Source: Candidatus Kapaibacteriota bacterium (GTDB taxonomy: Bacteria > Bacteroidota > Ignavibacteria > Kapaibacteriales > UBA961). From it: a DNA stretch of 64,000 nt. A model generated the notes under the pieces. It was not told the origin of the DNA. It did no database searches and saw only the letters and a program-made list of their open reading frames with translations. The DNA lies in NCBI GenBank assembly GCA_049426725.1, contig JBMSYN010000012.1:2139-66138 (forward strand), given 5' to 3'. Shown piece after piece: positions 2,366-44,600 of the stretch. Every line of letters starts with the position of its first letter. Position 1 is the first letter of the stretch. Made by a program: the position numbers and the translations under genes.

Positions 2366-2376
2366 GGATTACTCCG

Positions 2377-2835: not shown

Positions 2836-2876
2836 TGTCAAATCCTCAAAGAAAAAAGGAATTCAAATAGAGCTTG

Positions 2877-2907: not shown

Positions 2908-2934
2908 GAAAAATTTTGCACAGGCTTATCCACA
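2897..2934 (+). promoter_or_regulatory. Three tandem DnaA boxes
   Basis: TTTTCCACA 2897-2905, TTTTGCACA 2914-2922 and TTATCCACA 2926-2934 all fit TTWTNCACA in the same orientation. Confidence 0.6.
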
Positions 2935-2977
2935 AATGATAGAGTTAAGCTTATCATAGGCGCATTTCAGGTTTTTT

Positions 2978-3766: not shown

Positions 3767-3768
3767 GA

Positions 3769-5028: not shown

Positions 5029-5145
5029 AGGATGAGCCGTGTACTGTTTTGTCATAGATTATAGTGCAAATTACATATTTCCCATTGAAAGAACGGAATT
5101 GCATGTCATGACAAGACCGTATTTTCGTATCCACAGGAGATATCA

Positions 5146-7406: not shown

Positions 7407-7516
7407 GATTGCTCCTTTCATGCAATCTACGGATTTCATCACAGGCATTTCAAGTATCTTGTAACATTATGAGGGTAACTTCGTAATTCCCAAATATTTT
7501 ATGGAGATAGACTAAC

Positions 7517-8092: not shown

Positions 8093-9129
8093 AAGGTGCA
8101 AAGTTTCTATTTGGATTCTTCTTCATTTCATTGGGATTATTAACGTTTATCGATAATTTCAATCACATTCATGGCACAGAAGAATTATGGCGTTTGTGGC
8201 CGGTCATTCTTATCCTATTGGGTGTCGCATCATTGATAAATTATGACAAACTAAAAAATACCATGATGGCCGGCATAGGGATAATATCTGCTTTGACAAT
8301 CTTTTCATCTATGCAAGATGCACCTGTTTATGTTGCTGATTATCACAATGAAAAAGCGTATTCAACAACTGACACAACATTGATAACATTCGATTCAACA
8401 CTTAGTGATACAACATTCTTATCAATTGGGGCCGGTGTCATGAATATCAATCTCATGGCATCAGATGATACTTCTTTGATGATGATTTCATCGCAAAACG
8501 AATTCTTCCAAAGAGATGATGAGGATTCTCAGACTGAATCTCTTTTTTCGATTGACAAAATCATTAAGAATGGAACAATGCATCTAGATGTTGACATGGG
8601 CGGAAACATCAAGGTGTTCAGAAATAACAAATTGAAAAAGGCGGATTTTCGCTTAAATAAGAAACCAATTTGGAATATTGCATTGGCAGGTGGAGTCAAC
8701 TCTTTCAATGCGGATGTGTCGAAACTCAGAATTTCGAATTTTTCTTTTGATATTGGTGTAAGTGACATTTCATTAAAGCTTGGGGATTTGATTGACTCCT
8801 CGCATGTGGAAGTCAACGGTGGTGCCGTTACAAAGTTTCACATTGAGATACCGGAAGGTGTCGGTTGTAAAATTGATCATGAATCTGTATTGACAAAACA
8901 TAATTTCCCGGGTTTCATTCAAAAGGATGATCTATCATATGAAACTCCGAATTATCAATCATCAAGAAAGAAAATCACCATCAATTTAGAAACCGGTATC
9001 AGCTCAATCATGGTGAAAACATATAAGCAAAATCCTCCCATATCACCCTCAAATCAAAAGGATGAAAAAACTGATACATTGCTTAAGAAGCTAGACATAA
9101 AGCCAAATAAACAATCAAAACAATTGTGA
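8089..9129 (+). CDS. LiaF/DUF5668-like membrane protein with beta-rich (toast-rack-like) extracytoplasmic domain
   Basis: LWPVILILLG TM motif and repeated GA/GV beta-turn motifs; ATGA overlap with the pspC-like gene. Confidence 0.65.
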   Translation: MKGAKFLFGFFFISLGLLTFIDNFNHIHGTEELWRLWPVILILLGVASLINYDKLKNTMMAGIGIISALTIFSSMQDAPVYVADYHNEKAYSTTDTTLITFDSTLSDTTFLSIGAGVMNINLMASDDTSLMMISSQNEFFQRDDEDSQTESLFSIDKIIKNGTMHLDVDMGGNIKVFRNNKLKKADFRLNKKPIWNIALAGGVNSFNADVSKLRISNFSFDIGVSDISLKLGDLIDSSHVEVNGGAVTKFHIEIPEGVGCKIDHESVLTKHNFPGFIQKDDLSYETPNYQSSRKKITINLETGISSIMVKTYKQNPPISPSNQKDEKTDTLLKKLDIKPNKQSKQL

Positions 9130-28780: not shown

Positions 28781-30010
28781 TTATTCAAAAACTTGATTGC
28801 GTAAGATGTCGTCCAGACTTTCTCTTTTTCTTATAAGTTCGGCTTTTCCATTGATTACAAACACCTCTGCCGGACGAAATCTGCTATTGTAATTACTTGA
28901 CATTGTCATTCCATAAGCACCGGCATTGTTAAATGCGAGGATATCACCCTCTCGCACTTCATTCAATTTCCTATCCCAGCCGAAAGTATCTGTTTCGCAG
29001 ATATACCCAACAACGGTATAGAGGCGTAATGGGGCATCAGGATTGCTTACATTCGTGATATGATGATACCCATTATAGAGCATGGGTCGAATCAAATGAT
29101 TGAGTCCGCTATCAACACCTGCAAACATGGCAGAAGTGGTTTGTTTCAAGACATTTACCTTGACCAAAAATGTACCTGCTTCACTCACCAGAAATTTTCC
29201 GGGTTCAAACCATAATTCCAATTCTCTTCCATATTCATCACAAAATCTTTTGAAACGTTCAGTGAGTTTTATGCCAAGCTCTTCGATATCTGTTGAATAA
29301 TCATCAGGTTTATATGGCACTTTGAAGCCACTTCCAAAATCAATGAATGATAAATCGCGGAAACTTTCGGCTTGTTCAAAGAGGATGTCTGCAGCACGAA
29401 GGAAAATGTCAACATCTACGATATCGCTTCCGGTGTGCATGTGTAATCCTATGACATTCAAATGTGTATTCTCGACAATTCTCAGGACATGCCTCATTTG
29501 ATAAATCGAAATCCCAAACTTTGAATCAATGTGTCCGGTCGAGATATTGATATTGCCACCTGCCATCACATGAGGATTGATTCTTATGCAAATAGGAACA
29601 CTATTTCCATATTTCACTCCAAATTGCTCAAGTATGGAAATATTGTCAATATTGATCATTACTCCTTCTTTCACTGCAAGGTCGATTTCTTCCATCGAGA
29701 CGCAATTTGGCGTATAGATGATTTCATGTGGAGCATATCCGGCTTTAAGTCCAAGCCAAACCTCTTGAATTGAAACAGTATCAAGGCAGGCGCCCAAATC
29801 ATGAAGATGTCTCATGACTCTGATTGAATTCAATGCTTTGCATGCATAATTTATGCGGGTCTTACATGTTGAAAATGCTTGTTTAAGGCGATTGAATTGC
29901 CTTTCCATGATGTTTCCATCATAGACATAAAGTGGTGTATCAAATCGTTCGACAAGGTCAATGACAGGAATACCACCAATGGCATATCTTCCAGCTTGAA
30001 ATTCTATCAT
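28781..30010 (-). CDS. lysA: Diaminopimelate decarboxylase
   Basis: YACKA PLP lysine, SKFGI, HTGS, EPGK, GYICETD and GAYG..MSSNYN. Confidence 0.95.
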   Translation of the reverse strand: MIEFQAGRYAIGGIPVIDLVERFDTPLYVYDGNIMERQFNRLKQAFSTCKTRINYACKALNSIRVMRHLHDLGACLDTVSIQEVWLGLKAGYAPHEIIYTPNCVSMEEIDLAVKEGVMINIDNISILEQFGVKYGNSVPICIRINPHVMAGGNINISTGHIDSKFGISIYQMRHVLRIVENTHLNVIGLHMHTGSDIVDVDIFLRAADILFEQAESFRDLSFIDFGSGFKVPYKPDDYSTDIEELGIKLTERFKRFCDEYGRELELWFEPGKFLVSEAGTFLVKVNVLKQTTSAMFAGVDSGLNHLIRPMLYNGYHHITNVSNPDAPLRLYTVVGYICETDTFGWDRKLNEVREGDILAFNNAGAYGMTMSSNYNSRFRPAEVFVINGKAELIRKRESLDDILRNQVFE

Positions 30011-30106
30011 GAGAAATCTATTTTTTGGTTGTCAGGAATAAATAATGGGTTTATTTTACACGAGTTACAAATTTCGTCAATTTTTTGGACATTTTAGGGA
30101 AAGAGC

Positions 30107-30517
30107 ATGTCATCAATCACATTAAAGTCATCATTGATCAAAGGTTTGATTGCCGGTTTGGCAAGTGCATTCATCAATAGTATTCTCTATTATGCTTTCA
30201 AAAATTTAGGTGCAATCAATGATATTGTCCAAATCAAACCCGAGACAACCCTTGGTGTTCATCATGCCATATTTTCTTCGATTGTCTCTTCAGTCATTGC
30301 GGGTTTTGTTTTTTTTGTGATTTCGCTCTTTGCTCGTGATGCCTTCCGCATCTTTCAAAGAATCTCTCTTATCCTACTCATTTTGTCATTTTTCAATCCA
30401 TTTCTTTTCATCCCCGATGTACCTGTCGGTTTTGCCATTTCACTCAATATCATGCATATTGTTGTTGCAGCCGCTGTTATTTATGTGATGAAAAAACATA
30501 TCCCCTTTCTATCATGA
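30107..30517 (+). CDS. DUF6069-like 4-TM membrane protein
   Basis: Four TMs with LSF.NP and LNIMH motifs. Confidence 0.6.
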   Translation: MSSITLKSSLIKGLIAGLASAFINSILYYAFKNLGAINDIVQIKPETTLGVHHAIFSSIVSSVIAGFVFFVISLFARDAFRIFQRISLILLILSFFNPFLFIPDVPVGFAISLNIMHIVVAAAVIYVMKKHIPFLS

Positions 30518-33156
30518 ATCTTTTCATAGTCTTTCTTCTCTCCTGCTTTGCAACAATCCAAATGCAAAGTCAACAATACTGCAATGCCTCTCTTTCTCTC
30601 GATGGAATCAATGATTATGGTTCGATTTCAGAGTCTTTTTTTCCTGATCCAGAACAAAGAACATTTACAATTGAGTTTTATGTAAAAAGTTTGGGAAACA
30701 CAGATCCTATTCCGGGTATTTGGGGTCAATATGGAACATCTTGCTATTTGGCAGTTTTTAATATGAGTGGCATACGCTTTTCATACTTAATCAATGGGCA
30801 AACTTTTTCAACAGATTCAACGATCAACACGATTGGAGAATGGGAGCATATTGCCATAACAGGCAATGAGCAAACGGGCAAGTTATCCATATTCAAAAAT
30901 GGAGTCAAGATTGGCGAAAGAGATCATGGCACACCAAATTGGGACTTTATTGACAATAGTTCAAGAATTGGTGCCATTCTCGACATCTTTGGCATGCAAG
31001 AAACATATTATTATCATGGATTGATTGATGACTTTCATGTTTCCGATTCTGTTCTCTACACTCAGGATTTCATTCCACCAACTCAAATCACCCCTAATTC
31101 TCGAACAAGAGTGCTTTATAATTTCAATTCAGTTGATGGTTCTGTGATTCAAGATGTATCAATAAACAATAATGATTTGACTTTGCACAATGGAGCTCAA
31201 TTGTCACAAGATGTTCCATATCCGGGTGGTAGTTCAATCATTATACAAGAACCTGTGAATCAATATCCTGATTTCGGGGAGCAAGCCCAGTTCACTCTTT
31301 CTGCAAATGGACAAATACAATGTCAATGGTATGTGAATACAGGAAATGGTTTTCAAATCATGTCCGATAATGATGAATATTCAGGTACAGAAACTTCGCA
31401 ATTAACCATCAAACAAGCATCAGCACAGTATAATAGCTACTTCTATCGCTGTATCGTACAGCGCGATCAATGTTCTGACACTTCCAATCAAGTTCGCGTA
31501 TTTGTTTGCGGTAAGATTTTGCAACAACCCGTAAATATAAATGCAATATCTGTAGATACAGGATCATTCACATTGAATCATACAGATGCAAATGCCACAT
31601 ATCAATGGCAATATTCAAATGGTGGCACTTTTGTGAATCTTATTCCGGGAAGCAATTATTCCGGAGTGAATAAGGGTACGCTGCGTGTAGACAAACGCGG
31701 TCTTGGTAAAGGACCTCATCTATATAGATGCATTGTTCAATCAAGCGTATGTGCAGATACTTCGACTACAGCACTGCTTCTTGTTTGTGGTACAATTGTG
31801 AATCAACCTGTTGATGTAAAAGGTAAACAAAATATATCCTGCTCTTTCAGTGTTAGCAATACAGATCCACAAGCAACTTTTCAATGGATTGTCAATAAAA
31901 ATCAGAGATATGAAATACTGAATGATGGAAATGGCATATCAGGCTCCAAAACATCACGTATCATGATTGACACAGCACGATTTTCGATGAATAGGTGGTC
32001 TTTCAGATGCATCATGTCATCAGGAATATGCATTGATACCTCAATGGCAGCAACTTTAAATATATGCGGTAGCCTCATTGGTCAGCCAAGTGTTCCATCT
32101 CTTTCTCGTCCTGGTAGCACTGTTACACTCAGCATTGTACATACTGATCTAGAAGCTCGCTTCCAATGGCAGAAATATGAAGCCAATGGATGGGTCAATG
32201 TAAAAGATGATATTACGATCTCAGGATCAAAAGCAAGAGAGATGTTTATTTCTAATGTTTCAACAAAAGATCATGATTCACGATATCGTTGTATTACACA
32301 TAGTGTGATTTGTACAGATACATCTCTTCCTGTACAATTAAATATTTGTGGTAGTATCACTGAACAACCTAACGGAATACAAGTGCGATCTGGAGCCATG
32401 GGATCAGTGTCTGTTACACACAGTGATATCTATGCACTATATCAATGGCAATCTTGGAATGGTACAATATTTAACAATCTCATTGATGCTGGTACAATAT
32501 CCGGAAGCAATGCAAGTACTGTGCGCTTCAATACATTGAGTATGAGTGATAATAATCGGAAACTTAGATGCATCATTAAGACTGGTGGATGCATTGATAC
32601 TACAAATGATATAACTATTGCTGTATGCGGTTCATTGATTATGCATCCATTCAATCAATCTGTCAAAGAAGGAAAGCAAGCACTGTTTAGCATTAAACAT
32701 GAAGATCCTACTGCAACTTTTCAATGGCAGATGTTTTCAAACAATGCTTTTATGAATCTCTTGAACAATCAGCAATTTAATGGTGTGCGAAATGATACAT
32801 TATTGATTTTACAAACAACACGCATTGATAGTGGATCAGTATTTCGTTGTTTGATCAATACAAATGGTTGTTTGGATACAAGTAATTCCGCACAATTATT
32901 CGTTATAACAGAACCAATGAACATATTGGATGATGATAAACTTCCTTTGGGGATTTATCCGCATCCGGTACAAGATATTCTGTGGATTCAAGGCGTTCAA
33001 GATTATCCTATCATCATCAAAAATATATTGGGTCAAACAATGATGCATGGCATAATCACACCTCAAGGTTTAGACATATCTTTACTGCAATCCGGTATTT
33101 ATGTATTGCAAAGTATGACAATGCCCATCAAAACTGTAACCTTCATCAAAAAATAG
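30514..33156 (+). CDS. LamG-like domain, six Cys-containing Ig-like repeats, T9SS CTD
   Basis: FTIEFYVK, WEHIAIT and GLIDDF (LamG); roughly 93-aa repeats QP...QW...RC...C.DT; IYPHP...SGIY CTD. Confidence 0.8.
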   Translation: MNLFIVFLLSCFATIQMQSQQYCNASLSLDGINDYGSISESFFPDPEQRTFTIEFYVKSLGNTDPIPGIWGQYGTSCYLAVFNMSGIRFSYLINGQTFSTDSTINTIGEWEHIAITGNEQTGKLSIFKNGVKIGERDHGTPNWDFIDNSSRIGAILDIFGMQETYYYHGLIDDFHVSDSVLYTQDFIPPTQITPNSRTRVLYNFNSVDGSVIQDVSINNNDLTLHNGAQLSQDVPYPGGSSIIIQEPVNQYPDFGEQAQFTLSANGQIQCQWYVNTGNGFQIMSDNDEYSGTETSQLTIKQASAQYNSYFYRCIVQRDQCSDTSNQVRVFVCGKILQQPVNINAISVDTGSFTLNHTDANATYQWQYSNGGTFVNLIPGSNYSGVNKGTLRVDKRGLGKGPHLYRCIVQSSVCADTSTTALLLVCGTIVNQPVDVKGKQNISCSFSVSNTDPQATFQWIVNKNQRYEILNDGNGISGSKTSRIMIDTARFSMNRWSFRCIMSSGICIDTSMAATLNICGSLIGQPSVPSLSRPGSTVTLSIVHTDLEARFQWQKYEANGWVNVKDDITISGSKAREMFISNVSTKDHDSRYRCITHSVICTDTSLPVQLNICGSITEQPNGIQVRSGAMGSVSVTHSDIYALYQWQSWNGTIFNNLIDAGTISGSNASTVRFNTLSMSDNNRKLRCIIKTGGCIDTTNDITIAVCGSLIMHPFNQSVKEGKQALFSIKHEDPTATFQWQMFSNNAFMNLLNNQQFNGVRNDTLLILQTTRIDSGSVFRCLINTNGCLDTSNSAQLFVITEPMNILDDDKLPLGIYPHPVQDILWIQGVQDYPIIIKNILGQTMMHGIITPQGLDISLLQSGIYVLQSMTMPIKTVTFIKK

Positions 33157-33196
33157 TTGTCATTGTTTTACTCTTTGAAGCAGTCTAGATCACTCT

Positions 33197-33811
33197 ATGC
33201 AGATTTTGATCTTTTTTAGCCTGTTCTTGATTTATGGTTCATTGTCAGCTCGTGAAATAACAATAAAACCATTTATCAGTAATCAACCTTTGGTTTTGCA
33301 CAAAGCAATGCTAGATTCAGATCATACCGTGCAGATTTCCACTTTCAAAGTATATGTGTGCTCGATAACTGATATTGATACAAAAGTTCACTTATTGGAA
33401 TTGGAACAGAACTTCTCTTTCACAATTAGTGATGTTAAGCAAACACTGATGTTTGGAATTGACTCCAATCAAACTGTGAACACAACCTTCAGTGATGCAC
33501 TTGACCCCATTCATGGAATGTTCTGGACATGGAATGCTGGTTATATCAATTGTAAAATTGAAGGTATTTATACTCATGCAAACAATGTAATAACCGAGTT
33601 TCAGTTGCATCTTGGTGGATATCGGTTTCCTGATGCGACATCCCATGTGATAAATATACCCAAAGGTAAAAAAGACATTCAGATTGAAATAGACATAAAA
33701 CCTGCCTTGGATCAGATGATGAAAGAAGGCAAGCAGAGAATTATGATACCAGGCAAAGATGCCAAGGTATTATCAGATTTATTGTACTCATCGATAAGAA
33801 TATCAAATTGA
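33197..33811 (+). CDS. MbnP-family copper-binding protein
   Basis: LDPIHGMFWTWNAGYINCKIEG containing WxW (W110/W112), downstream HLGG, and an adjacent di-heme peroxidase gene. Confidence 0.75.
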   Translation: MQILIFFSLFLIYGSLSAREITIKPFISNQPLVLHKAMLDSDHTVQISTFKVYVCSITDIDTKVHLLELEQNFSFTISDVKQTLMFGIDSNQTVNTTFSDALDPIHGMFWTWNAGYINCKIEGIYTHANNVITEFQLHLGGYRFPDATSHVINIPKGKKDIQIEIDIKPALDQMMKEGKQRIMIPGKDAKVLSDLLYSSIRISN

Positions 33812-34812
33812 AATCTTTGATGCTCATATCATTTGGTATTATGCTTTTAATGGGTTTCAATAATGAAATCCCCAGTCATATTCCCAAACCCAAGAGAGCA
33901 TTACCGGATTCAAAGAAAGACTCTTCACGTATTGCATTGGGAAGAGCTTTATTTTATGATCCAATTCTCTCAAGAGATACAACCATTTCTTGTGCATCTT
34001 GTCATTCTCAGTATAATGGTTTTACACATTCAGATCATGCTTTGAGTCATGGCATTGAAGATAGAATCGGAAAGCGAAATGCTCCATCACTGGTCAATCT
34101 TGCTTGGAGCGATGCATTCATGTGGGATGGTGCAAGTTTTTCTTTGGAAGCACAAGTATTGACACCATTAACTGCACATCATGAAATGGACAATTCTTTG
34201 GATACAATCATCTATCGTTTAAAGATGCATGATAGATATCCATCAATGTTCTATGACGCATATAAAGATAGTACAATCACTATTGCACATATTGTCAAAT
34301 CAATTGCAAGTTTTGAATCGCAATTCATTTCTTTTCAATCACGATATGATTCTGTTCAAAAAGAGTTAACTGTGTTTACTGATCAAGAAAATACAGGATA
34401 TGCTTTGTTCAAGCAACATTGCAATAGTTGTCATCAAGAGCCACTGTTCACAAACAATGCATTTGCCGATAATGGTTTATCAATGAATAAAGCATTGCCC
34501 GATAGTGGAAGATATGCCATAACCAATGCCATGCAAGATATGCGTCATTTCAAGGTACCAACGCTTCGGAATATTGTATACACATTCCCGTATATGCATG
34601 ATGGCAGATTTTCGAGACTACGCGATGTACTCAATCATTATGCATACAATATTGACACAACTGATCTAAATCGAGACATAATAAAGCCAATGTATTTGAC
34701 TTCCAATCAGATAACTGATGTGATGGCATTTCTGTATACTCTGACCGATAAGTCTTTCCTTTTTAATCCACGTTTTGGTGACCCAATGTATTTGCAGCGA
34801 GTAAAACAATGA
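33808..34812 (+). CDS. MbnH/MauG-like di-heme cytochrome c peroxidase
   Basis: LGRALFYD, CASCH, RNAPSL, WDG, CNSCH, FKVPTLRNI and PYMHDG; TTG start overlaps the upstream stop. Confidence 0.9.
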   Translation: MKSLMLISFGIMLLMGFNNEIPSHIPKPKRALPDSKKDSSRIALGRALFYDPILSRDTTISCASCHSQYNGFTHSDHALSHGIEDRIGKRNAPSLVNLAWSDAFMWDGASFSLEAQVLTPLTAHHEMDNSLDTIIYRLKMHDRYPSMFYDAYKDSTITIAHIVKSIASFESQFISFQSRYDSVQKELTVFTDQENTGYALFKQHCNSCHQEPLFTNNAFADNGLSMNKALPDSGRYAITNAMQDMRHFKVPTLRNIVYTFPYMHDGRFSRLRDVLNHYAYNIDTTDLNRDIIKPMYLTSNQITDVMAFLYTLTDKSFLFNPRFGDPMYLQRVKQ

Positions 34813-37232
34813 TTAGACTTTTATGCTTTCTTCTAAGTGCTACAACAGCATTTTCTCAAACAAATCCCATCATTACTTCTTGGCTGCAGAACACTACCAT
34901 TGTGGGTAGTTATTATCAGAAGAATAATTCAACTGCAATAAGTAATAATATCATTGTCAATGTTCAAAAAGTTCAATATTCAACTACCAGTGTATATATA
35001 AATACCAATGGAATTCCAGCATATCCTACAGGACCTTTCCTTGATGGAAATCCGTCCCAGGCACAAAGTCAAAATACCATTTTTAAATTTCCTTTAAATC
35101 CACAACAGAACACGGGAAATCCGACTGCAACAACAGGTGGAAATATTGGAATATTCATCAATGGTGTTGCATTGTTTGATTATCGAGATGGTGTTTCGTG
35201 GAAGACATCGCAAAATAGATTACTGGGAGGTCCACTTGGAGGTCAAGGAGACAATGTATGGAATCGAGATGCTATCGTTGCAGAAAGAATAGGTTTTGAT
35301 TGTGCAAAAGGTCATCCGGCAATGGGAAATTACCATCATCATCAGAATCCCTCGGCTTTTAAATTGGATAAAACGGTTATCTCAACCATTTGTTCATTAT
35401 ATGATTCCGACGGTTTATATACAATCAATGCCAATGTTCATTCTCCATTGATTGGCTTTGCCTATGATGGATTCCCAATCTATGGCGCTTATGGTTATAA
35501 GAACAAGGATGGATCAGGTGGAATAGTACGAATGAAATCTTCATATCAATTACGAAACATATCTGTTCGAACTCATTATGCGGATGGGACTGATGTACTT
35601 GATGGTCCGGCAGTCAATTCTTCATATCCTCTTGGATATTTTCGCGAAGATTATGTGTATGTTTCTCACTCAGAGTCAGATTATTTGGACGATCACAATG
35701 GAAGATTTTGTGTTACACCCGAATATCCAAATGGCATCTATGCATATTTTAGTACTGTTGATGATAATTGGAATTCAGCATATCCTTATGTGGTTGGTCC
35801 GACATTTTACGGAATTAAAACAGCTACCAAAGTACCAAGCATATCTGAGCCAACAACCGTCTACACAATTCCGAACCCAACATTGGATATTTCTCCACCT
35901 TCAATAACAATTGCACCTGCAGCATTATCTGTCAATATTCAAGTCACTTCAAACACAGCCTGGAATGTTTCTAGTAATCAAGCATGGGCTATTCCATCCA
36001 TTTTGAATGGAACAGGAAATACAGTTGTAGGCATACAGTGTGCAGAAAACAAAGGCATTGGAAGCAGAAATGCAACTATAACATTTTCTGCAAATGGACT
36101 ACCCGCTAAAACAGCATTTATTACTCAAAGAGATAGTATTATCACTCTTTCTTTGAATAAACAAAGCGTATTGTTTCCCGCTTATGCATCAACAGATAGC
36201 GCAGTATCTATTTCTTCCAATGCAAATTGGACAATAACCACATCTGATCCTTGGATCCATTGTAGTCCTATGGAAGGATCCGGAAATGCAAGTATCATCA
36301 TCAATGCTGATGTGCATACAGATACAGTAAAGAGATATGGATCAGTCTCTGTACAAGCCGGAAACTCAATTATTAAAACAATTGCGATAACTCAACTTGA
36401 TTCAGTTCATGTTCCATCAGTCATGGCTGCTGATATTGATACAATTTTTCTGAATGCTGGAAAGAATAGTTCTTATTCGTTCAAATTGGTTTCAAATACC
36501 CCATGGAAAGTAATATCTCCAGCTACATGGCTTAATATTCAACCTGATTCTGGAAATACTACACAGATGATAATGGTTACTGCAAAGGAGAATATTTCAT
36601 CACCTAGAAAGTCGGTTATTCTCATCAAAGGGATCAATGTAAAAGATATAATGATACCCGTAATTCAAAAAGATAGCATAAAATTGTCACTTACTCTGTC
36701 GGCAGACACTTTATATGTACCTGCAAAAGAAAAAGACCATTTCATCATTCTCACTTCAAATACGCCTTGGAAGTGTCTTACTTATGATTCTTGGATTCAT
36801 ATTAAAAATGATACTGGAAATTCGAGTTCACTACTATCATTTACTACTACTCTGAATGATTCTAAATCAAAGAGATTAGGTACTATCCATGTTCAAGGAT
36901 TATCTGTTCCTCAACAATCTTTAACTATCATTCAGTCTGATACTGTTCTTACACCAAGCAATATATCAGAATCAGCTATTGATGATGTTGTAAGTCTCTT
37001 TCCAAACCCTGCCAATGATCTACTTGTGATACAAGCAAAGTCGCTGATAAGGGAATCCCTGACATTGAAACTTTTTGACATGATGGGAAGAGAAATAGAC
37101 ACAACGATGCTGTATCAAGGCAGCACCATTGCATTCTTTGATGTGTCCACCTTGTATGATGGAACATATCAACTCTCGATTATAGGAAGAGAGTATAATC
37201 TTCAACAAACAATTATTATTCAACATCAATGA
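34809..37232 (+). CDS. YHYH-domain protein with four BACON-like repeats and T9SS CTD
   Basis: GIFINGV, GHP..GNYHHH, HSPLIGFAYDGFPIYG and LDDHNGRF..TPEYP.G.YAYF; four SNx.W...W repeats; FPNP CTD. Confidence 0.8.
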   Translation: MIRLLCFLLSATTAFSQTNPIITSWLQNTTIVGSYYQKNNSTAISNNIIVNVQKVQYSTTSVYINTNGIPAYPTGPFLDGNPSQAQSQNTIFKFPLNPQQNTGNPTATTGGNIGIFINGVALFDYRDGVSWKTSQNRLLGGPLGGQGDNVWNRDAIVAERIGFDCAKGHPAMGNYHHHQNPSAFKLDKTVISTICSLYDSDGLYTINANVHSPLIGFAYDGFPIYGAYGYKNKDGSGGIVRMKSSYQLRNISVRTHYADGTDVLDGPAVNSSYPLGYFREDYVYVSHSESDYLDDHNGRFCVTPEYPNGIYAYFSTVDDNWNSAYPYVVGPTFYGIKTATKVPSISEPTTVYTIPNPTLDISPPSITIAPAALSVNIQVTSNTAWNVSSNQAWAIPSILNGTGNTVVGIQCAENKGIGSRNATITFSANGLPAKTAFITQRDSIITLSLNKQSVLFPAYASTDSAVSISSNANWTITTSDPWIHCSPMEGSGNASIIINADVHTDTVKRYGSVSVQAGNSIIKTIAITQLDSVHVPSVMAADIDTIFLNAGKNSSYSFKLVSNTPWKVISPATWLNIQPDSGNTTQMIMVTAKENISSPRKSVILIKGINVKDIMIPVIQKDSIKLSLTLSADTLYVPAKEKDHFIILTSNTPWKCLTYDSWIHIKNDTGNSSSLLSFTTTLNDSKSKRLGTIHVQGLSVPQQSLTIIQSDTVLTPSNISESAIDDVVSLFPNPANDLLVIQAKSLIRESLTLKLFDMMGREIDTTMLYQGSTIAFFDVSTLYDGTYQLSIIGREYNLQQTIIIQHQ
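34855..34894 (+). repeat. 40-bp exact direct repeat, copy 1 (copy 2 at 37284-37323)
   Basis: CTCAAACAAATCCCATCATTACTTCTTGGCTGCAGAACAC at the mature N-terminus of both YHYH paralogs. Confidence 0.85.
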
Positions 37233-38572
37233 ACAAAACAATGAAATTTGCATTGCTTTTGATGAGCATTGTTACAATACATGCTCAAACAAATCCCATC
37301 ATTACTTCTTGGCTGCAGAACACAAGCAAGCTTGGAAGTTATTACATGAAGAATAATTCAACGCCAATAAGTAATAATATCAAAGCGAATGTACAATTGG
37401 TGAGATATTCTTCGAACAATGTATATGTTTCCACAAATGGTATTCCCACCTATCCAACCGGCCCTTTTCAGGATGGTAATCCATCACAGGCACAAAGTCA
37501 AAACGGGATATTTCGATTCCCCTTAACTGCATCAAAAAACACAGGAAATCCTGTCAAGACCACCATGGGGAATATTGGATTATTCATCAATGGTGTTGCA
37601 TTATTTGATTCTCGTGATGGGGTATCATGGAATAATGCCCAACAAAGAGTTGTGGGTGGACCAATCATGGGGAAAGGTGATGGAATATGGAATCGCGATG
37701 CAATCGTAGCTGAAAGAGTTGGATTTGATTGTTCCAAGGGTCATCCTGCAATGGGGAATTATCATCATCATCAAAATCCATCAGCATTCAAATTAGATAA
37801 GAAAGTGATCTATGATGTATGTTCACTCTATGATGCTGAAGGACTTTATGCAATCAATCCTGCAATGCATTCACCACTCATTGGTTTTGCTTATGATGGC
37901 TTTCCTGTATATGGTGCTTATGCATTCAAAAATACTGATGGCACAGGTGACATTGTTCGCATGAAATCGGGTTATCAATTGAGATCAATCACAAATCGCA
38001 CTCATTTGGCTAATGGAACGGATGTAACTGATGGTCCTTCTGTCAATGGTACATTTCCTTTGGGGTATTTCATTGAAGATTATGAATTTATTTCTCATCC
38101 CGGAGAAAATGATTATTTGGATGAACATAATGGTCGTTTTTGCATCACTCCTGAGTATCCAAATGGCACCTATGCTTATTTCTGTACAGTTGATGAACAA
38201 TGGAATTCAACATTCCCTTATGCAGTTGGCCCAACCTTTTATGGTTCGATTGTTGCAGCCAAGGTAAATTCCGTTTCCGAACCGGTAGAAACATATACAT
38301 CCATAAGCTCAATTCAAGAAATACAGTCATCAGGTTTTTCCATGTTTTTTGGCGGTAATGATTTACTCATCATACAATCTCAAGACATCATCCGTAATCC
38401 TCTAGACATAAAGCTATATGATTTACAAGGAAGAATGATAGCCGGTACGGTTCTCGAACAAGGAAGTACGATTGCTCATATTGACTGTTCATTATTCCAT
38501 GATGGAGTATATGCTTTACATATCTCATCCGGAGTGAAAACCATAGAACAACAAGTTATTATCAAGCATTGA
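37229..38572 (+). CDS. YHYH-domain protein paralog with degenerate T9SS CTD
   Basis: Same motifs as the upstream paralog, no BACON repeats; LYDLQGR...GVY CTD; ATGA overlap. Confidence 0.8.
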   Translation: MNKTMKFALLLMSIVTIHAQTNPIITSWLQNTSKLGSYYMKNNSTPISNNIKANVQLVRYSSNNVYVSTNGIPTYPTGPFQDGNPSQAQSQNGIFRFPLTASKNTGNPVKTTMGNIGLFINGVALFDSRDGVSWNNAQQRVVGGPIMGKGDGIWNRDAIVAERVGFDCSKGHPAMGNYHHHQNPSAFKLDKKVIYDVCSLYDAEGLYAINPAMHSPLIGFAYDGFPVYGAYAFKNTDGTGDIVRMKSGYQLRSITNRTHLANGTDVTDGPSVNGTFPLGYFIEDYEFISHPGENDYLDEHNGRFCITPEYPNGTYAYFCTVDEQWNSTFPYAVGPTFYGSIVAAKVNSVSEPVETYTSISSIQEIQSSGFSMFFGGNDLLIIQSQDIIRNPLDIKLYDLQGRMIAGTVLEQGSTIAHIDCSLFHDGVYALHISSGVKTIEQQVIIKH

Positions 38573-38656
38573 TTACATTGGGGATAACTTAAAGTATTGA
38601 CCTCATGATTTCCTCGTATACTTGCACAAATACGTTTAACATGTACTCATTCTGAC

Positions 38657-39616
38657 ATGAATATCATTCTTGCTTTTTTGATATTGACTTCATTTGTTCA
38701 TCCTGCAATCCAAGCAAAACCCGATACGGTGAAAATTGGAATGTATCTCACTTCATTACATGATTTCAATCTATCAGATCATTCATTCAAATATGATGCA
38801 TATTATTGGTGTAGATATACCAATCCTTCATTTGATTTCGCAAATGAATTCGAGGTGATGAACTCTAATGATGTCACACTTGAATCGCCATATATTGAAA
38901 CCATTGGAAATGAATATCTTTTCTCAACAAAAACAAAAGCTACAGTAAGACAATTATGGAAAACGAAAGATTATCCATTTGACAAGCAAACGCTTGTAAT
39001 ATCAGTTGAATCCTCAAAGAATGATACAACCAAAATGGTTTTTGTATGTGATCATAAAAATTCTCGATATCAAGATTCCCTCCAAACATTACTTCCGGAG
39101 TGGAATATCAAAAACACAGATTTCACAATCACTTCATCAAAGTATTCAACAAATTTTGGCTCTGAGAATTTGGGGAATACAAGTTATAATTCATCATTTA
39201 ACATGGTGATTCAACTAGAACGAAAAGAGTCATTTCTCGTTCTTTTTAAACTGATAACCGGTGTGCTCGTGGCTTTTGTTATCTCATGTTGTGTGTTTTT
39301 CATCAAGCCCTTTAATATTGATCCCCGTTTTGGTCTTTGTGTTGGTGGTTTGTTTGCAACAATTGGAAATAAGTATATCATTGAAGGAATGGTCCCATCC
39401 ACGAATGAAGTAACAATGCTTGATGACATTCACAATGTCACGCTTGTGTTTATCTTTCTCATTATCACCATCTCAGTTATCTCTCTTCATTTATATGAGA
39501 AAGGTTCAACAAAATCATTGAAGCTTTCCAAGCTTATTGACAAAGTATCTTTCTATACCGTAGCCATTTCATATACTACATTACTTATCGGCATAATCGC
39601 AAGTCATATTTATTAA
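38657..39616 (+). CDS. Prokaryotic pentameric ligand-gated ion channel (Pro-loop/Cys-loop superfamily)
   Basis: Signal peptide, beta-sandwich with YPFDKQ Pro-loop and EW, R before M1, four C-terminal TMs, P..N..T.LD in the M2-M3 loop. Confidence 0.8.
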   Translation: MNIILAFLILTSFVHPAIQAKPDTVKIGMYLTSLHDFNLSDHSFKYDAYYWCRYTNPSFDFANEFEVMNSNDVTLESPYIETIGNEYLFSTKTKATVRQLWKTKDYPFDKQTLVISVESSKNDTTKMVFVCDHKNSRYQDSLQTLLPEWNIKNTDFTITSSKYSTNFGSENLGNTSYNSSFNMVIQLERKESFLVLFKLITGVLVAFVISCCVFFIKPFNIDPRFGLCVGGLFATIGNKYIIEGMVPSTNEVTMLDDIHNVTLVFIFLIITISVISLHLYEKGSTKSLKLSKLIDKVSFYTVAISYTTLLIGIIASHIY

Positions 39617-39641
39617 TGAAGATTGACTATCAATCGATGTT

Positions 39642-41240
39642 ATGAACATTTCAAAAATTATCATCCTTTTCCTTTGTAGCATTACATTTTCTTTTGCTCA
39701 GAAAAATGTTGTTTTAATCATTGCTGATGATCTTGGACTAGAGTATTGTGGCTTTTATGGAAATACCGGTGATACGGTCATAATGCCAAATGTACAGTCA
39801 CTTCTTTCAAAAGGTATTCGGTTTACAAATGCTTGGTCCAATCCATTGTGCTCTCCTACAAGGGCGGGTATACTTACTGGACGATATAGTTTTAGGACAG
39901 GTGTTGGTGATGCAGTTGGAGGTCAAACCTCTAATACGCTTGACACATCTGAATTGACCATTCCAAGAATGCTGAACATTTATAATCCGAATGGTATAGC
40001 CAAAGCCAATATTGGAAAATGGCATCTTCATACTCCTATGCCGCAAAGCAATTTTTCAATTCCAATGATTATGGGATATGATTATTATGAGGGAAGTTTT
40101 AGTGGCTCTTTGCCAAACTATTATGCTTGGAATAAAATTAAGGATAGTAAAATCACAGTTTGTAGCACATATGCAACCATTGAAACCACAAATAATGCAA
40201 TAGATTGGTGTAAGTCTATCCCCTCCAATAAACCTATTTTTTTATGGCTAGCATATAATGCGCCGCATACACCATTTAATCTACCACCGTCGAATTTACA
40301 TTCCTATTCGAACCTAAAGGGGAATGCTCAGGATACAGCAACAAGTGTTGTTCCTTATTACAAAGCTATGTGCGAAGCATTGGACAGAGAGATTGGAAGA
40401 TTGTTTGACTCTTTGAAAGCAGCCAATCGTTTTGATAGCACCGATTTCATTTTTATTGGTGACAATGGGAGTGACCCCCGTGTCTACAAAGGAAATGGAA
40501 GAGCCAAAGGAAGTGTATATCAAGATGGAATTTGTGTGCCATTCATTGTTTCTGGTCCTTCAGTAAAAAATCCAGGAAGAGTTTCATCCGCCCTAGTCAA
40601 CACACAAGATATTTTTGCCACCATTCTTGAACTATTTGGTTTTGTTGATTGGAAGAATCACTCTTTGCAAACTAAACCAATTGATTCCAAGAGTTTTCTC
40701 CCAATCATAAAAGCTGAAAATCAAATGACACGAGATTGGGTGTTTAGTGAAGTGTTTAGATCTACCCCAAATGCTTCTGACGGAAAAACGATGAGAAATC
40801 AAGAGTACAAATTGCTTGATTTTGACAATGGGACACAGAAGTTCTATAATCTTTCCTCAGATCCAGATGAACAGCAAAATCTATTATTACAATCTCTTAC
40901 TGAAACAGAAAAAAACAATTATGAATATCTCTGCCGAGAGATGACAAATCTTGTAGGTAAAAATGGTTTCTGTTCTATAACTAGCATTGAAGAATATTTA
41001 AGTAATAATTCAGGAGTCATCTTCGATTCCGAACATGACTTGCTTCAAATACGAAAACATTGCAGTGATAATGCTCGTTTTGCATGCATATCATCAAATG
41101 GAAAAATTATGATTCAGCAGAATTTTGAAGATGAGTCTGACTTTCAGATCAATACTTCATCGCTTCACTCTGGAATATATACCGTCACTGTGGATTGTAA
41201 TCACACTTCCATCAATCATCCCATTATCATTCAACGGTGA
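39642..41240 (+). CDS. Cys-type formylglycine sulfatase with T9SS-like CTD
   Basis: IADDLG, CSPTRAGILTG, GKWHL, APH, GDNG and KG motifs. Confidence 0.9.
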   Translation: MNISKIIILFLCSITFSFAQKNVVLIIADDLGLEYCGFYGNTGDTVIMPNVQSLLSKGIRFTNAWSNPLCSPTRAGILTGRYSFRTGVGDAVGGQTSNTLDTSELTIPRMLNIYNPNGIAKANIGKWHLHTPMPQSNFSIPMIMGYDYYEGSFSGSLPNYYAWNKIKDSKITVCSTYATIETTNNAIDWCKSIPSNKPIFLWLAYNAPHTPFNLPPSNLHSYSNLKGNAQDTATSVVPYYKAMCEALDREIGRLFDSLKAANRFDSTDFIFIGDNGSDPRVYKGNGRAKGSVYQDGICVPFIVSGPSVKNPGRVSSALVNTQDIFATILELFGFVDWKNHSLQTKPIDSKSFLPIIKAENQMTRDWVFSEVFRSTPNASDGKTMRNQEYKLLDFDNGTQKFYNLSSDPDEQQNLLLQSLTETEKNNYEYLCREMTNLVGKNGFCSITSIEEYLSNNSGVIFDSEHDLLQIRKHCSDNARFACISSNGKIMIQQNFEDESDFQINTSSLHSGIYTVTVDCNHTSINHPIIIQR

Positions 41241-42513
41241 TTCGAGATCGACTTTTTGTTATCATATAACCAAATGCCATTACGATCACAAACAATATAC
41301 TTCCATAAATTCCCGCATTGGTATCAAACATGAAGATGTTTATTCCCGTGAACAAACATGCTGCAATGAATAACAGAGCAACCAGATGAATCTTGATAGA
41401 TAGTTTCTCTCCTTTTAGTTTATATAATGTTGCCATTCCAACACCTAGTCCGATACTATCAATGAAGATTGTATAATTCAAAATCCTCTCGAATGATTCA
41501 CCAGCATAGACACTAATCAAACTGATCGCCGTAAATACAGTCAAGGCAGAAAAACTCACTCCTTTTGCTTCATCCGATTGTGCAAATATTTTTGGCAGTA
41601 CACCATCTTTTCCCATTGCTGAAATCACTCTGGGATTTGATAGCATTGATATATTCACATATCCAAATACTGAAATCATGATAATCATGCTGACAATCAA
41701 TGCGGCTGTGCTTCCAAACAATCGTTCCATCATGATGGCGGCAATAAATTTTGATTGCGCCAATTCATGAAATCCAATCACTTGCACATAAGCCAGATTT
41801 GCCAATAAATAAATGCCAATGATAATCAATACGCCTAGTATGATTGCTCTTGGCAGCATCTTCTCATTATTGTTCACCTCACCACCAAAATTGATCGTTT
41901 GTTGATATCCACCATAGGTGAATGAAACAGCAATAAGTGCAAGACCAAATGATTCCCAAATGCCTCCTGAATGTGACTGAATGGCAGTCACTGTTTCTGT
42001 CGGAGGTAGGATACCAAGTGCTGAAATAATTGCCCCAAGCATGAACAATTTGATACCCATGAGTATGTTCTGAACAGTGGCACTTGTTCGCAGGCCAAGC
42101 AGATTAAGTCCATATAAAACAAAAATGAATAACGACGCTATGACTGTACTTGGCAAACCCATTGCATAAGGCATCACATATTCGGCACCGATAATCGCAA
42201 CCCCTGCGATTGAAGCAGCATTGGAAACAAGTATGATAATATTGATTGCAAATGCTAGCGTTGGTGAATATGCCCTTGCAAAGATGGAATAATATGCTCC
42301 GCTCACGGGCATCCGCTTGCCAATTTCAGCATATCCGATTGCGCCACAAAGAGCAATCAATCCGCCGGTGATCCATGCGACATAGTAGATCAATTCACTT
42401 CCTGCTCTTTGGGCAACAGTAGCAGGGGCTCGAAAAATGCCCATGCCAATCACGAGTGAAATGACCATCATGGTGATGTCGAAGAAACGAAGTTGATGTT
42501 TTGCTCTATTCAT
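41227..42513 (-). CDS. APC-family amino acid permease
   Basis: IGMGIF, YAEIG..MP..G, FTYGGY and about 12 TMs. Confidence 0.9.
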   Translation of the reverse strand: MNRAKHQLRFFDITMMVISLVIGMGIFRAPATVAQRAGSELIYYVAWITGGLIALCGAIGYAEIGKRMPVSGAYYSIFARAYSPTLAFAINIIILVSNAASIAGVAIIGAEYVMPYAMGLPSTVIASLFIFVLYGLNLLGLRTSATVQNILMGIKLFMLGAIISALGILPPTETVTAIQSHSGGIWESFGLALIAVSFTYGGYQQTINFGGEVNNNEKMLPRAIILGVLIIIGIYLLANLAYVQVIGFHELAQSKFIAAIMMERLFGSTAALIVSMIIMISVFGYVNISMLSNPRVISAMGKDGVLPKIFAQSDEAKGVSFSALTVFTAISLISVYAGESFERILNYTIFIDSIGLGVGMATLYKLKGEKLSIKIHLVALLFIAACLFTGINIFMFDTNAGIYGSILFVIVMAFGYMITKSRSRITVE

Positions 42514-42590: not shown

Positions 42591-44600
42591 ATGCAAGATT
42601 CCGATTACATAGTAGATTATGTCTTTATTGGTTTGGGAGCGGCAAATTCCCTCATCATCCGCCAAATGCACGCTCATGGCATATTGGATGATGCAACATT
42701 GATGATCATCGATCCCGATGAAAAATTATTGAATGATAAAACCTTCTGCTTTTGGGCAACAGAACAAGAGATTCATGATCTTGGATTCACTTCGCTTATA
42801 AGCCATGATTGGTCTTTATTGGGAATTGGAGAACATATAACTCAATCTGTTCAACCCTATCGCTATTATCATGTTTCTAGTATCACGCTCTATGATGAAC
42901 TGCGAGATATTCTTTCACTACATAATGTACAATTCGTTCGTGAATATGCCGAAGAGATTATTTCTTCAGAAAGTGAAATCATATCCGTCCGGACTTCTCA
43001 TTCAAAAGTGAGTGCTAAGTATGTATTCGATTCCAGACCACCTCAATGGAATGAACCTGCTCGCAATGAAACATTTCTCCTGCAATCTTTTTTTGGTTGG
43101 AGAATTACGACTAAAGATCCAATCTTCGATGTACATACATTTACCATGATGGATTTTTCCGTTGATCAATCCATTGCTACGCAATTTGTGTATGTACTTC
43201 CATTCTCTCCAAATCATGCACTCATAGAATTGACACGCTTTGGAGCGAGTCCCATAGAATATACTTATGCTCAAGAACAATTGAATAGATATTGTCAACA
43301 AAAGCAATATGGTTCGTATACAATTGAGAGTGAAGAACAAGGCATCATTCCGATGTCCACATGTTCAATCAAAACTGAACCTTCAACAGATAACCACTTA
43401 AAGACAGGCAGTGCCGCAGGAAGAATTAAACCAAGCACAGGGTATGCATTCAAGGAAATGGCGTTTCATGCAGTTCACATTGTGGAGTCACTCAAAAGTG
43501 GATACAATCCACAAAGAGCTATGCAACGATCAGGGCGATTTGCTTTCTATGATAGACTTCTTCTGAAGATATTAGAGTCTCATCCAAATCGAGGAAAAGA
43601 ACTATTTGAGCGATTGTTTCAACAAGTTTCGGGCACAAGAGTACTTCGTTTTCTTGAAGAGCAAACTTCATTCATAGAAGATATATCGGTGTTCATGGCA
43701 CTACCCAAATACATGTTTGCCAAGCAAGCTGTGATTGATATGATGCATACCTTTTTCAGGAATGCTCATGGTATGTTTGCTTTGGGTATGGCACTGTTGT
43801 TTGTGCTGTTTCAATATCTTGATATGTCTATTATCAATTGGCTTATTCTTGGAATTGGACTTTTGCTGATAGGCATTCCCCATGGAGCTATGGATCATGT
43901 ATTGACCATTGGTGAAAGATCGGCAAAATCAGTTGGTTTGTTCATACTTGGATATGTGGCAAAAGGAATACTCATGTTGTCGATATGGATTATATCACCA
44001 CTTCTCGGACTCATCATTTTTTTGATTTATTCCATGTGGCATTTTGGTCAGACAGAGTATGAGCAAGAGAATGTCCATAATCCATGGCTTATTTTCCTAA
44101 GAGGTTTTGCGGTATTGTCATTCATACTTGCCACTCATATTCCCGAGACAAATACTATCATCAATGCATTGTCGATATCTTCAATTATTGACATGCAAGG
44201 AGTTATCACTTCATCATTCCTAACTGAACTCTCATTCACTCTATTGATATTGAGCACCATTGTAAAGCTAAGAAAGTCAATCATTCTTTGCACACTTTCA
44301 TTATTGGTCATGATGCAGTTGGATCTACTGCAGGTATTCGGTGTCTATTTTGTTTTTCATCACAGTTTTTTAGGATGGAATCATTTGAAGAAAGGACTCC
44401 GGAAGACAAACCTACAATTATGGGAATTATCGGCTCCATTTTCGATTTCAGCAATTGGAACTCTTTTTCTCTTTTTCATCAACACCGGTTACACACTTAT
44501 AGATTTTGCCCCCTTATTTTTTGTGTTTCTCTCATGTATTAGCTTCCCCCATGTGCTAGAGATGCACTCATTCTATGGTTCGATATTCAAGCGCAGGTGA
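42591..44600 (+). CDS. Fusion of lycopene beta-cyclase (CrtY-type) and Brp/Blh beta-carotene 15,15'-dioxygenase
   Basis: N-part: IGLGAA Rossmann, DKTFCFW, VFDSRP, FVYVLPFS and GSAAGRIKPSTGYAF; C-part: multi-TM with GIPHGAMDH, HFG, HHS and FPH; single uninterrupted ORF. Confidence 0.85.
   Translation: MQDSDYIVDYVFIGLGAANSLIIRQMHAHGILDDATLMIIDPDEKLLNDKTFCFWATEQEIHDLGFTSLISHDWSLLGIGEHITQSVQPYRYYHVSSITLYDELRDILSLHNVQFVREYAEEIISSESEIISVRTSHSKVSAKYVFDSRPPQWNEPARNETFLLQSFFGWRITTKDPIFDVHTFTMMDFSVDQSIATQFVYVLPFSPNHALIELTRFGASPIEYTYAQEQLNRYCQQKQYGSYTIESEEQGIIPMSTCSIKTEPSTDNHLKTGSAAGRIKPSTGYAFKEMAFHAVHIVESLKSGYNPQRAMQRSGRFAFYDRLLLKILESHPNRGKELFERLFQQVSGTRVLRFLEEQTSFIEDISVFMALPKYMFAKQAVIDMMHTFFRNAHGMFALGMALLFVLFQYLDMSIINWLILGIGLLLIGIPHGAMDHVLTIGERSAKSVGLFILGYVAKGILMLSIWIISPLLGLIIFLIYSMWHFGQTEYEQENVHNPWLIFLRGFAVLSFILATHIPETNTIINALSISSIIDMQGVITSSFLTELSFTLLILSTIVKLRKSIILCTLSLLVMMQLDLLQVFGVYFVFHHSFLGWNHLKKGLRKTNLQLWELSAPFSISAIGTLFLFFINTGYTLIDFAPLFFVFLSCISFPHVLEMHSFYGSIFKRR

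Follow-up and report, generated by a model that had tools for sequence, protein, structure and literature searches.

An MbnP-MbnH pair recurrently linked to predicted T9SS-exported YHYH proteins in Bacteroidota, with a regulator-less copy in a Candidatus Kapaibacteriota genome

What might an MbnP-MbnH pair be doing when it is encoded together with two secreted YHYH proteins? The question is raised by four genes at positions 33197-38572 of a 64,000-nucleotide stretch of DNA from a Candidatus Kapaibacteriota bacterium (contig JBMSYN010000012.1, positions 2,139 to 66,138), referred to below as the window. A first-pass annotation of this DNA had proposed that MbnP and MbnH (together, MbnPH) are a dedicated copper-loading or maturation module for the YHYH proteins. 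Our preferred reading, held tentatively, is that the window holds one local copy, without regulators, of an envelope module that is conserved in Bacteroidota and composed of MbnP, MbnH and a YHYH protein exported by the type IX secretion system (T9SS), in which MbnH would mature MbnP and MbnP would serve YHYH before export. The MbnPH pair itself is already known; what appears to be new here is an MbnPH module with a conserved YHYH partner that is predicted to be exported. The four genes are as follows.

33197-33811, plus strand: MbnP-like protein of 204 amino acids with an N-terminal signal-peptide-like segment
33808-34812, plus strand: MbnH-like (MauG-type) di-haem enzyme of 334 amino acids, with a TTG start and two CxxCH motifs
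34809-37232, plus strand: YHYH1, 807 amino acids, with a signal peptide, a YHYH domain at residues 92-321, three BACON modules and a T9SS type A sorting domain at residues 730-804
37229-38572, plus strand: YHYH2, 447 amino acids, with a signal peptide, a YHYH domain at residues 95-325 and a T9SS type A sorting domain at residues 378-445

These co-directional open reading frames (ORFs) are joined by the junctions TTGA, ATGA and ATGA, each a 4-base overlap of stop and start codons, and every frame and junction was as the annotation had described it. The sole caveat is an in-frame ATG at 33820. Starting there, the MbnH gene would still adjoin the MbnP gene, with an 8-base gap after the MbnP stop codon in place of the overlap. 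Among 54 window ORFs scanned with Pfam and NCBIfam, we found no methanobactin-type gene (MbnA, MbnB or MbnC), no MbnT transporter and no TonB-dependent receptor, which bears out the remark that neither a methanobactin gene nor an outer-membrane transporter is adjacent. Promoter-like sites were not enriched around the block (48 versus 52.4 in shuffled sequence), and no terminator-like site was found on the plus strand in 29900-41400.

The first protein matched the Pfam MbnP family (PF20243) over residues 20-173 with 75.9 bits, against a cut-off of 27, and fell below the NCBIfam equivalog cut-off of TIGR04052 (20.9 versus 140 bits). Its WxW motif is WTW at residues 110-112 (W110-T-W112), and M108, W110, W112 and H138 did not vary across the 12 MbnP sequences aligned. 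A model built from this 12-sequence alignment reached a mean predicted local distance difference test (pLDDT) score of 83.3. When it was compared with solved folds by Foldseek, the top six matches were all chains of the MbnP structure 7l6g, at probability 1.00, with E values of 3.8e-4 to 2.4e-3 and query template-modelling (TM) scores of 0.41-0.51; the next entry had an E value of 0.038. Identity to 7l6g is only 10-13%, and sequence searches of solved structures, with phmmer or with a profile of the 12 sequences, gave no match at E up to 1. The copper site of solved MbnP is described, in the available passages of PMC11951088, as His, Met, water and Kyn174 of the WxW motif, the kynurenine being made by MbnH. 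The invariant M108, W110, W112 and H138 would fit that His/Met/kynurenine arrangement. Compared with the closest related locus (L028), MbnP is 44% identical and MbnH 59%, while the flanking genes are 69-82% identical. Judged by such sequence comparisons, MbnP is evolving unusually fast outside a few invariant residues.

The second protein matched CCP_MauG (PF03150) with 178.4 bits and carries its haem motifs as CASCH at residue 62 and CNSCH at residue 205. The best NCBIfam model was TIGR04039, "MbnH family di-heme enzyme," at 208.1 bits, which is under the cut-off of 362.85 and ahead of the MauG model for tryptophan tryptophylquinone (176.6 bits). Its best solved relative was 6e1c (E 2.4e-39), which we take to be MbnH, the title returned reading only "Di-heme enzyme"; the best classical peroxidase followed at an E value of 6.7e-35. 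With WTW, two CxxCH motifs and Pfam matches above cut-off, the annotation's call of a WxW MbnP-like protein beside a di-haem MauG-like enzyme was upheld.

YHYH1 and YHYH2 matched PF14240 with 194.5 and 182.0 bits, respectively (cut-off 25), and are 70.5% identical over the YHYH part. Both have hydrophobic N-termini. At the C-terminal end, the Por_Secre_tail model PF18962 gave 34.9 and 28.6 bits (cut-off 27), and the TIGR04183 sorting domain gave 32.3 and 27.0 bits (cut-off 23). The genome holds a SprA_N match and 72 matches to C-terminal sorting domains (CTDs), 53 of them above cut-off, which makes export of the YHYH proteins by T9SS credible. Both are thus predicted T9SS type A cargo, as first annotated, and the His-rich motifs that had been quoted are present in both translations.

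The YHYH family has been called a "blank slate" in the accessible text of the N-Zinclopedia preprint, in line with the annotation's view that YHYH is without an established function. A YHYH2 model from a 60-sequence alignment was of high quality (pLDDT 91.6; predicted TM score, 0.91) and resembled no solved fold (best Foldseek E value, 0.13; best VIA Z score, 2.7, over 48,161 chains). Nor did phmmer find a solved chain at E up to 1, and the ESM Atlas returned no usable match to fold relatives outside PF14240. The conserved residues of YHYH2 are D167, H172, H179, H180, H181, H214, D223, D284, D298 and H300. Across 157 YHYH domains, H172, H179 and H181 were all His in 147, and H214, D223, D284 and D298 were general too; H180 and H300 vary. 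The family core is therefore four His and three Asp, with an HxH motif, and the clade linked to MbnPH (see below) has a YHHH variant of the motif, H180, H214 and H300 in 94-100% of its members, and a Cys pair. Five aromatic residues are invariant (W154, Y178, Y228, Y315 and Y317), and about fifty positions are very highly conserved.

PF14240 occurs in bacteria, phages and giant viruses, and YHYH relatives at E up to 0.001 formed 2231 clusters at 50% identity. With E values of at most 0.001, 18 models of viral proteins matched the fold, including cyanophage structural and baseplate proteins. These matches agree with the passages available from PMC7824862, where the His-triad/Asp cluster is a predicted zinc-binding hydrolase site. 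A distant YHYH paralogue on contig C19 has the canonical YHYH motif twice, which suggests that the domain is an internal repeat, the second half of which would have degenerated in the linked clade. Fusion partners were sought in 56 of 150 representatives; of the rest, 12 were longer than 1700 amino acids, most others were shorter than 520, and the remainder lay beyond a limit on total residues. The partners were adhesion-type modules, sulfatase (three), arylsulfotransferase (two) and beta-lactamase (one).

The annotation had tied its proposal to recurrent linkage of YHYH with MbnPH across genomes, and the linkage proved strongly recurrent. Both the YHYH and the MbnP profile were run against 401 genomes drawn evenly from the phylum, and the coordinates of their matches were compared. 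Full-length YHYH gave 38 matches in 37 genomes, and MbnP gave 141. Thirteen of the 38 (in 12 genomes of seven taxonomic families) lay on the same strand as an MbnP match and less than 4 kb from it, as did 1 of 48 partial YHYH matches. For genomes of about 4 Mb, a rough estimate of the chance expectation is less than 0.1 of 38, so the adjacency exceeds chance. On inspection of the 38 loci, 13 had MbnP and MbnH, one (L023) had MbnH only and 24 had neither. In the 11 other linked loci every one of the 140 ORFs was scanned with Pfam, and in nine unlinked loci 65 of 102 ORFs were, namely those closest to YHYH; hidden Markov models (HMMs) built from our own alignments found no MbnP, MbnH or extracytoplasmic function (ECF) sigma factor in the remaining 16 loci. 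By own-alignment HMM score, 22 of the 38 YHYH matches were of the window type, a grouping that is partly circular, the HMM having been trained on many of the same sequences, and that the YHYH tree supports. MbnH was adjacent in 14 of these 22. The other 16 matches were mostly short forms from one taxonomic family, and none stood beside MbnH.

A second scan was directed at the closest relatives of the window's YHYH, with one genome per species. It comprised the best 79 loci of at least 595 relatives (60-86% identical), a sample that is biased towards the window's own YHYH subfamily and holds close relatives only. Classified with HMMs from our own alignments, 61 of the 79 loci had MbnP and MbnH adjacent, 58 with the pair upstream and 3 with it downstream of YHYH. 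Four had MbnH alone at a locus cut by a contig end, one (L102) had MbnH only, seven had neither gene despite at least 2.5 kb on both sides, and six were too short to judge. MbnP was therefore present in 61 of the 66 close loci that have MbnH. All seven genomes with neither gene at YHYH had two to four MbnP genes elsewhere, which is a weak test, MbnP being common there. In a maximum-likelihood tree of 102 YHYH domains, all 82 linked sequences fell in one clade with a Shimodaira-Hasegawa-like approximate likelihood ratio test (SH-aLRT) support of 99. The clade also includes 11 unlinked and 6 unjudged sequences, scattered inside it, and three divergent unlinked YHYH proteins formed a separate long-branch clade. 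Because the linkage is this recurrent (13 of 38 matches; 61 of 79 close loci), the four genes of the window very probably work together.

The shape of the association is uneven. In 50 of 54 loci MbnH has a possible start that overlaps the MbnP stop, and the median distance between the MbnH and YHYH reading frames in the related loci is 22 bases. In the same 54 loci the median pairwise identity was 0.61 for YHYH, which is the most conserved, 0.53 for MbnH and 0.31 for MbnP, and tree distances of MbnH and MbnP were correlated with an r of 0.81. From junctions, identities and tree distances, MbnP and MbnH appear to be a tightly coupled pair and YHYH a constant, slowly evolving neighbour. In L015 (4411-7464, genome G093), two tandem MauG-like genes come after an MbnP that carries a T9SS sorting domain of its own, 2 kb upstream of a YHYH-MbnP-MbnH set. 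Other neighbours were sporadic: TonB-dependent-receptor-like ORFs were found in 7 of 99 loci (the search covering only relatives of four local queries) and a multicopper oxidase homologue in 5 of 99.

Many of these cassettes appear to come with regulators of their own. Of the 51 linked close loci that could be evaluated, 29 have an ECF sigma factor gene no more than 2.5 kb upstream, and a family of Spy/LTXXQ-like ORFs lies between it and MbnP in about 30 loci. Both the ECF sigma factor and the Spy-like gene are absent from the window locus and from L028. The window's genome has no Spy-like ORF at all, and its best ECF match reached 114 bits, compared with 136-257 bits for cassette copies.

For expression there is a weak hint only. 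Twenty public runs contain the stretch. In four metatranscriptome runs, short contigs overlie part of each of the four genes, and two of these RNA-library contigs run across 33157-33196 from the upstream gene into mbnP. The depth of these contigs is about 2-7, DNA carry-over is possible, the uncovered parts are uninformative, and neither strand nor level can be read from them.

How, then, could the three kinds of protein act together? In the sequence of events that we tentatively favour, MbnP, MbnH and YHYH would all be exported by Sec into the periplasm. There MbnH would oxidise the WxW Trp of MbnP to kynurenine and so complete a Met/His/Kyn copper site, by homology to the Methylosinus pair. 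Copper-bound MbnP would then serve periplasmic YHYH, most probably by handing metal over to the His/Asp cluster, in the manner of a caddie protein for a secreted metalloenzyme. T9SS would carry the folded YHYH protein out to the cell surface or into the medium. There it may work on extracellular material, as a metalloenzyme or as a module that binds metal, and the BACON modules of YHYH1 would serve the same purpose. Cargo of T9SS has to fold, and so to take up its metal, while in the periplasm. We favour the order MbnH, MbnP, YHYH because the trio persists without the regulators, because the putative site residues of MbnP are conserved and because T9SS cargo folds in the periplasm. What the sequences show is the gene content, its conserved linkage, the candidate ligands, the export signals and a T9SS in the genome; copper, the kynurenine, the direction of transfer and a contact between MbnP and YHYH are what we infer, and the metal of the module is probably copper. 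MopE/SACCP and CorA/CorB, in which a secreted or surface copper protein is paired with a di-haem peroxidase (available text of PMC3621798), set a precedent, and copper-related neighbours turn up now and then, such as the T9SS multicopper oxidase beside a YHYH-like gene on contig C19 of the genome. A bolder version, which we think unlikely, would make the T9SS-exported YHYH clade a new class of secreted copper or redox-metal enzymes that are completed only by MbnP, acting as a dedicated kynurenine-copper chaperone made by MbnH. If true, exported enzymes would acquire their metal by a pathway of two steps that depends on a protein-derived cofactor, and the purpose of the widespread "orphan" MbnPH pairs would be explained.

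Several observations weigh against this reading. No MbnP match at all was found in 15 of the 37 genomes with full-length YHYH, and viral YHYH proteins share the fold, so the YHYH site can be filled without MbnPH. Its four-His/three-Asp set would suit a zinc, manganese or iron hydrolase as well as a copper site, and copper in MbnP would follow only from homology to a protein that is 10-13% identical. The MbnH-YHYH junction overlaps in just 6 of 54 loci and has short spacers in the other 48. Tree distances of YHYH track those of MbnH and MbnP weakly (r of 0.35 and 0.24, respectively; Mantel p of 0.001 and 0.006, uncontrolled for the species tree). In L023 and L102, MbnH is directly upstream of YHYH and no MbnP-like ORF is present even without filtering. 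The L102 pair stands on one strand (1757-8308) behind a ZnuA-type binding protein, an ABC ATPase and two ABC-3 permeases, which points to zinc or manganese. In L019 (6839-9689, genome G199), a YHYH protein that falls outside the clade and has no CTD is preceded by a cassette-type ECF sigma factor (247 bits) and by Spy-like ORFs, in a genome with no MbnP match; the link between regulator and YHYH can thus exist without MbnPH. None of the 56 representatives scanned had YHYH fused to an MbnP or MauG-like domain, and no long fusion protein containing MbnP was found in a search that counts as weak evidence by the tool's own note. The annotation's idea of MbnPH as a dedicated module for YHYH is thus partly supported: the recurrent linkage sustains the association, copper loading or cofactor maturation of YHYH stays a proposal, and strict dependence of YHYH on MbnPH is weakened by the genomes without MbnP, the viral YHYH proteins, L023 and L102, the junctions and the ligand set.

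Much of the same evidence would fit genes that are merely co-regulated and chemically independent. YHYH would then be a secreted zinc, manganese or iron hydrolase or binding module that shares an envelope or metal-stress regulon, mostly under the ECF sigma factor and with the Spy-like protein, an account that we rate as somewhat improbable. It draws on the zinc hydrolase site predicted in the accessible part of PMC7824862, on the four-His/three-Asp core, on the viral structural and baseplate relatives and the 15 YHYH genomes of 37 that are without MbnP, and on the fusions among the 56 representatives scanned, three of them with sulfatase, two with arylsulfotransferase and others with adhesion modules. 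The upstream ECF sigma factor (29 of 51 linked loci), the Spy/LTXXQ-like ORFs (about 30 loci), the spacers that replace an overlap between MbnH and YHYH in 48 of 54 loci, and L019, which retains ECF, Spy-like and YHYH genes without MbnPH, are all as such a regulon would have them. Adjacency within one clade in 61 of 79 loci, in two gene orders and across seven families, exceeds a usual loose regulon, and the trio is intact in the window and L028 though the ECF and Spy-like genes are absent from both loci and from the window's genome altogether. If the genes do act together chemically, the metal could also flow inward. Surface or released YHYH would bind scarce copper or another metal and feed it to a periplasmic kynurenine-copper MbnP, as a protein counterpart of methanobactin or of MopE/CorA. 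MopE and CorA are, in the available text of PMC3621798, copper-repressed surface or secreted copper proteins encoded beside a di-haem peroxidase, and copper-bound methanobactin stays outside the cell when either mbnP or mbnH is deleted (passages of PMC13729199). Also in favour are the T9SS sorting domain and the His-rich site of YHYH and, in L102, the ZnuA-type importer ahead of the MbnH-YHYH pair. Such importer adjacency was seen in only 1 of 115 loci, an outer-membrane transporter is not a conserved neighbour (TonB-dependent-receptor-like in 7 of 99, in the four-query search), and some fifty highly conserved YHYH positions together with catalytic and adhesion fusions look more enzyme-like than a simple chelator would. 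We consider uptake of this kind unlikely.

The enzyme might instead act on YHYH itself in the periplasm, oxidising or cross-linking a conserved aromatic residue into a protein-derived cofactor, as MauG does with methylamine dehydrogenase, with MbnP as a second substrate or an adaptor. Such direct modification, which would account for MbnH directly before YHYH without an MbnP-like ORF in L023 and L102, has candidate targets in W154, Y178, Y228, Y315 and Y317, and MauG-type enzymes act on protein residues according to the available passages of PMC11951088 and PMC11892367. The coupling within the pair speaks the other way: MbnP is present in 61 of 66 close MbnH loci and keeps its own WxW, Met and His, and MbnP and MbnH overlap in 50 of 54 loci and track each other (r of 0.81) far better than either tracks YHYH. 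Genome G207, which harbours L023, moreover has three MbnP matches elsewhere. We regard direct modification as quite improbable. That the genes are chance neighbours without a shared function could be argued from the unrelated secreted-protein genes in the same co-directional block, and is already contradicted by 13 of 38 and 61 of 79 independent same-strand loci with a median of 22 bases between MbnH and YHYH; we give it almost no weight. Taken together, delivery of metal from MbnH-matured MbnP to YHYH before export is the account that we favour, tentatively.

The conserved module sits in a longer co-directional block, the other members of which are listed here.

30107-30517, plus strand: DUF6069 protein, upstream and outside the conserved module
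30514-33156, plus strand: T9SS protein of 880 amino acids with LamG and immunoglobulin-like (Ig) domains, upstream and outside the conserved module
38657-39616, plus strand: ligand-gated-ion-channel-like protein, downstream, context only
39642-41240, plus strand: Cys-type T9SS sulfatase, downstream, context only

L028 has the order DUF6069, MbnP, MbnH, one YHYH, channel-like gene and sulfatase, with flanks as in the window. Relative to it, the window has an additional 880-amino-acid LamG/Ig T9SS gene and an additional YHYH-BACON gene (YHYH1). YHYH2 shares 80% identity with the one YHYH protein encoded in L028, and in the tree these two group together with YHYH1 as their sister (support, 91). 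The LamG/Ig gene was found in 0 of 99 loci, the DUF6069 gene is common to the window and L028 only, and the channel-like gene and the sulfatase are both present in L028. The channel-like protein, which resembles pentameric ligand-gated channels and is encoded immediately after YHYH2, matched NF033918 with 46.8 bits, under the cut-off, and Neur_chan_LBD weakly; its L028 counterpart is 82% identical. Further downstream, a 669-amino-acid ORF at 42591-44600 matched the lycopene-cyclase-family model TIGR01790 and the Brp/Blh beta-carotene dioxygenase model TIGR03753, that is, a fused retinal-synthesis gene, and is kept in L028.

The sulfatase has C-x-P-x-R at residue 70 and is the sole sulfatase-family gene of this 99%-complete genome, in which neither the formylglycine-generating enzyme (FGE; PF03781) nor the radical S-adenosylmethionine (SAM) maturase anSME (TIGR03942) found a match. 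Sulfatase maturation suggested itself as a role for the module because the genome's only sulfatase is in the block, because no FGE or anSME was found and because 3 of 56 YHYH representatives are sulfatase fusions. We rejected it as the general role, since 7 of 12 cassette genomes (99-100% complete) are without a sulfatase-family match and a sulfatase is a neighbour in only 6 of 99 loci.

Related genes are found elsewhere in the genome. Contig C28 (L006:242-2245) carries a second, canonical pair, its MbnP (316 amino acids, 164.7 Pfam bits) and MbnH being 23% and 41% identical, respectively, to those of the window; it lies at the contig end beside an RsgA GTPase gene. Contig C19 (L007:7845-15375) holds a major facilitator superfamily (MFS) transporter, a T9SS multicopper oxidase, an AhpC/TSA-type redoxin and a 399-amino-acid protein without a family, and in the same cluster the distant YHYH protein, of 528 amino acids, and an Lcl_C protein. 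In L016, the YHYH-like/Lcl_C pair comes immediately before the YHYH cassette.

Kenney 2019, Manesis 2021 and Manesis 2023 reportedly describe MbnPH in other copper-related contexts. A full-text search, with the main MbnPH papers beyond its reach, found no published link between YHYH and MbnPH and no paper with the phrase "metallo-mystery pair." MbnP/MbnH pairs outside methanobactin operons are called "mysterious partners" in the available part of PMC3621798. The module gives the orphan YHYH family a first functional lead and joins it to these unexplained pairs, so that both puzzles become testable with ordinary experiments. If MbnP does load a secreted enzyme, or receive metal from one, this would be a new route of metalloprotein maturation tied to T9SS export.

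Against this background the window can be placed among known systems. It shares with the phage tail, baseplate and giant-virus YHYH proteins the family PF14240, the fold and the His/Asp cluster; these, like many cellular YHYH proteins, are without MbnPH, and the linked clade adds the YHHH variant, H300 and the Cys pair. With MopE/SACCP of Methylococcus capsulatus and CorA/CorB of Methylomicrobium album, in which a surface or secreted metal protein is encoded beside a di-haem cytochrome c peroxidase (available text of PMC3621798) and which have a kynurenine-copper site and copper repression (passages of PMC3621798 and PMC11951088), the likeness is by analogy only, namely a secreted partner encoded beside a di-haem enzyme. 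YHYH matches no solved chain by sequence or fold, distant kinship remaining possible, and the window differs in that MbnP comes in as a protein of its own between the enzyme and the secreted partner, for which T9SS export is predicted. The MbnP/MbnH pair of Methylosinus trichosporium OB3b has the same order of a WxW protein and then a MauG-like di-haem enzyme in overlapping genes, and the window pair resembles it in the Pfam MbnP match, the 7l6g fold match, 6e1c as best match and the conserved Met, WxW and His, the putative site residues. The window differs in having no methanobactin genes and no conserved TonB-dependent transporter, in its short MbnP (204 amino acids), which is 10-13% identical and far below the TIGR04052 cut-off, and in its constant third partner, a YHYH protein with predicted T9SS export. 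The same three core genes make up the ECF-controlled Bacteroidota cassettes (L008-L017 and L028-L106), which have the order MbnP-MbnH-YHYH (58 of 79) or YHYH-MbnP-MbnH (3 of 79). Unlike these, the window and L028 are without the ECF sigma factor and the Spy-like gene, and the window in addition has a second YHYH protein with BACON modules and the inserted 880-amino-acid LamG/Ig gene.

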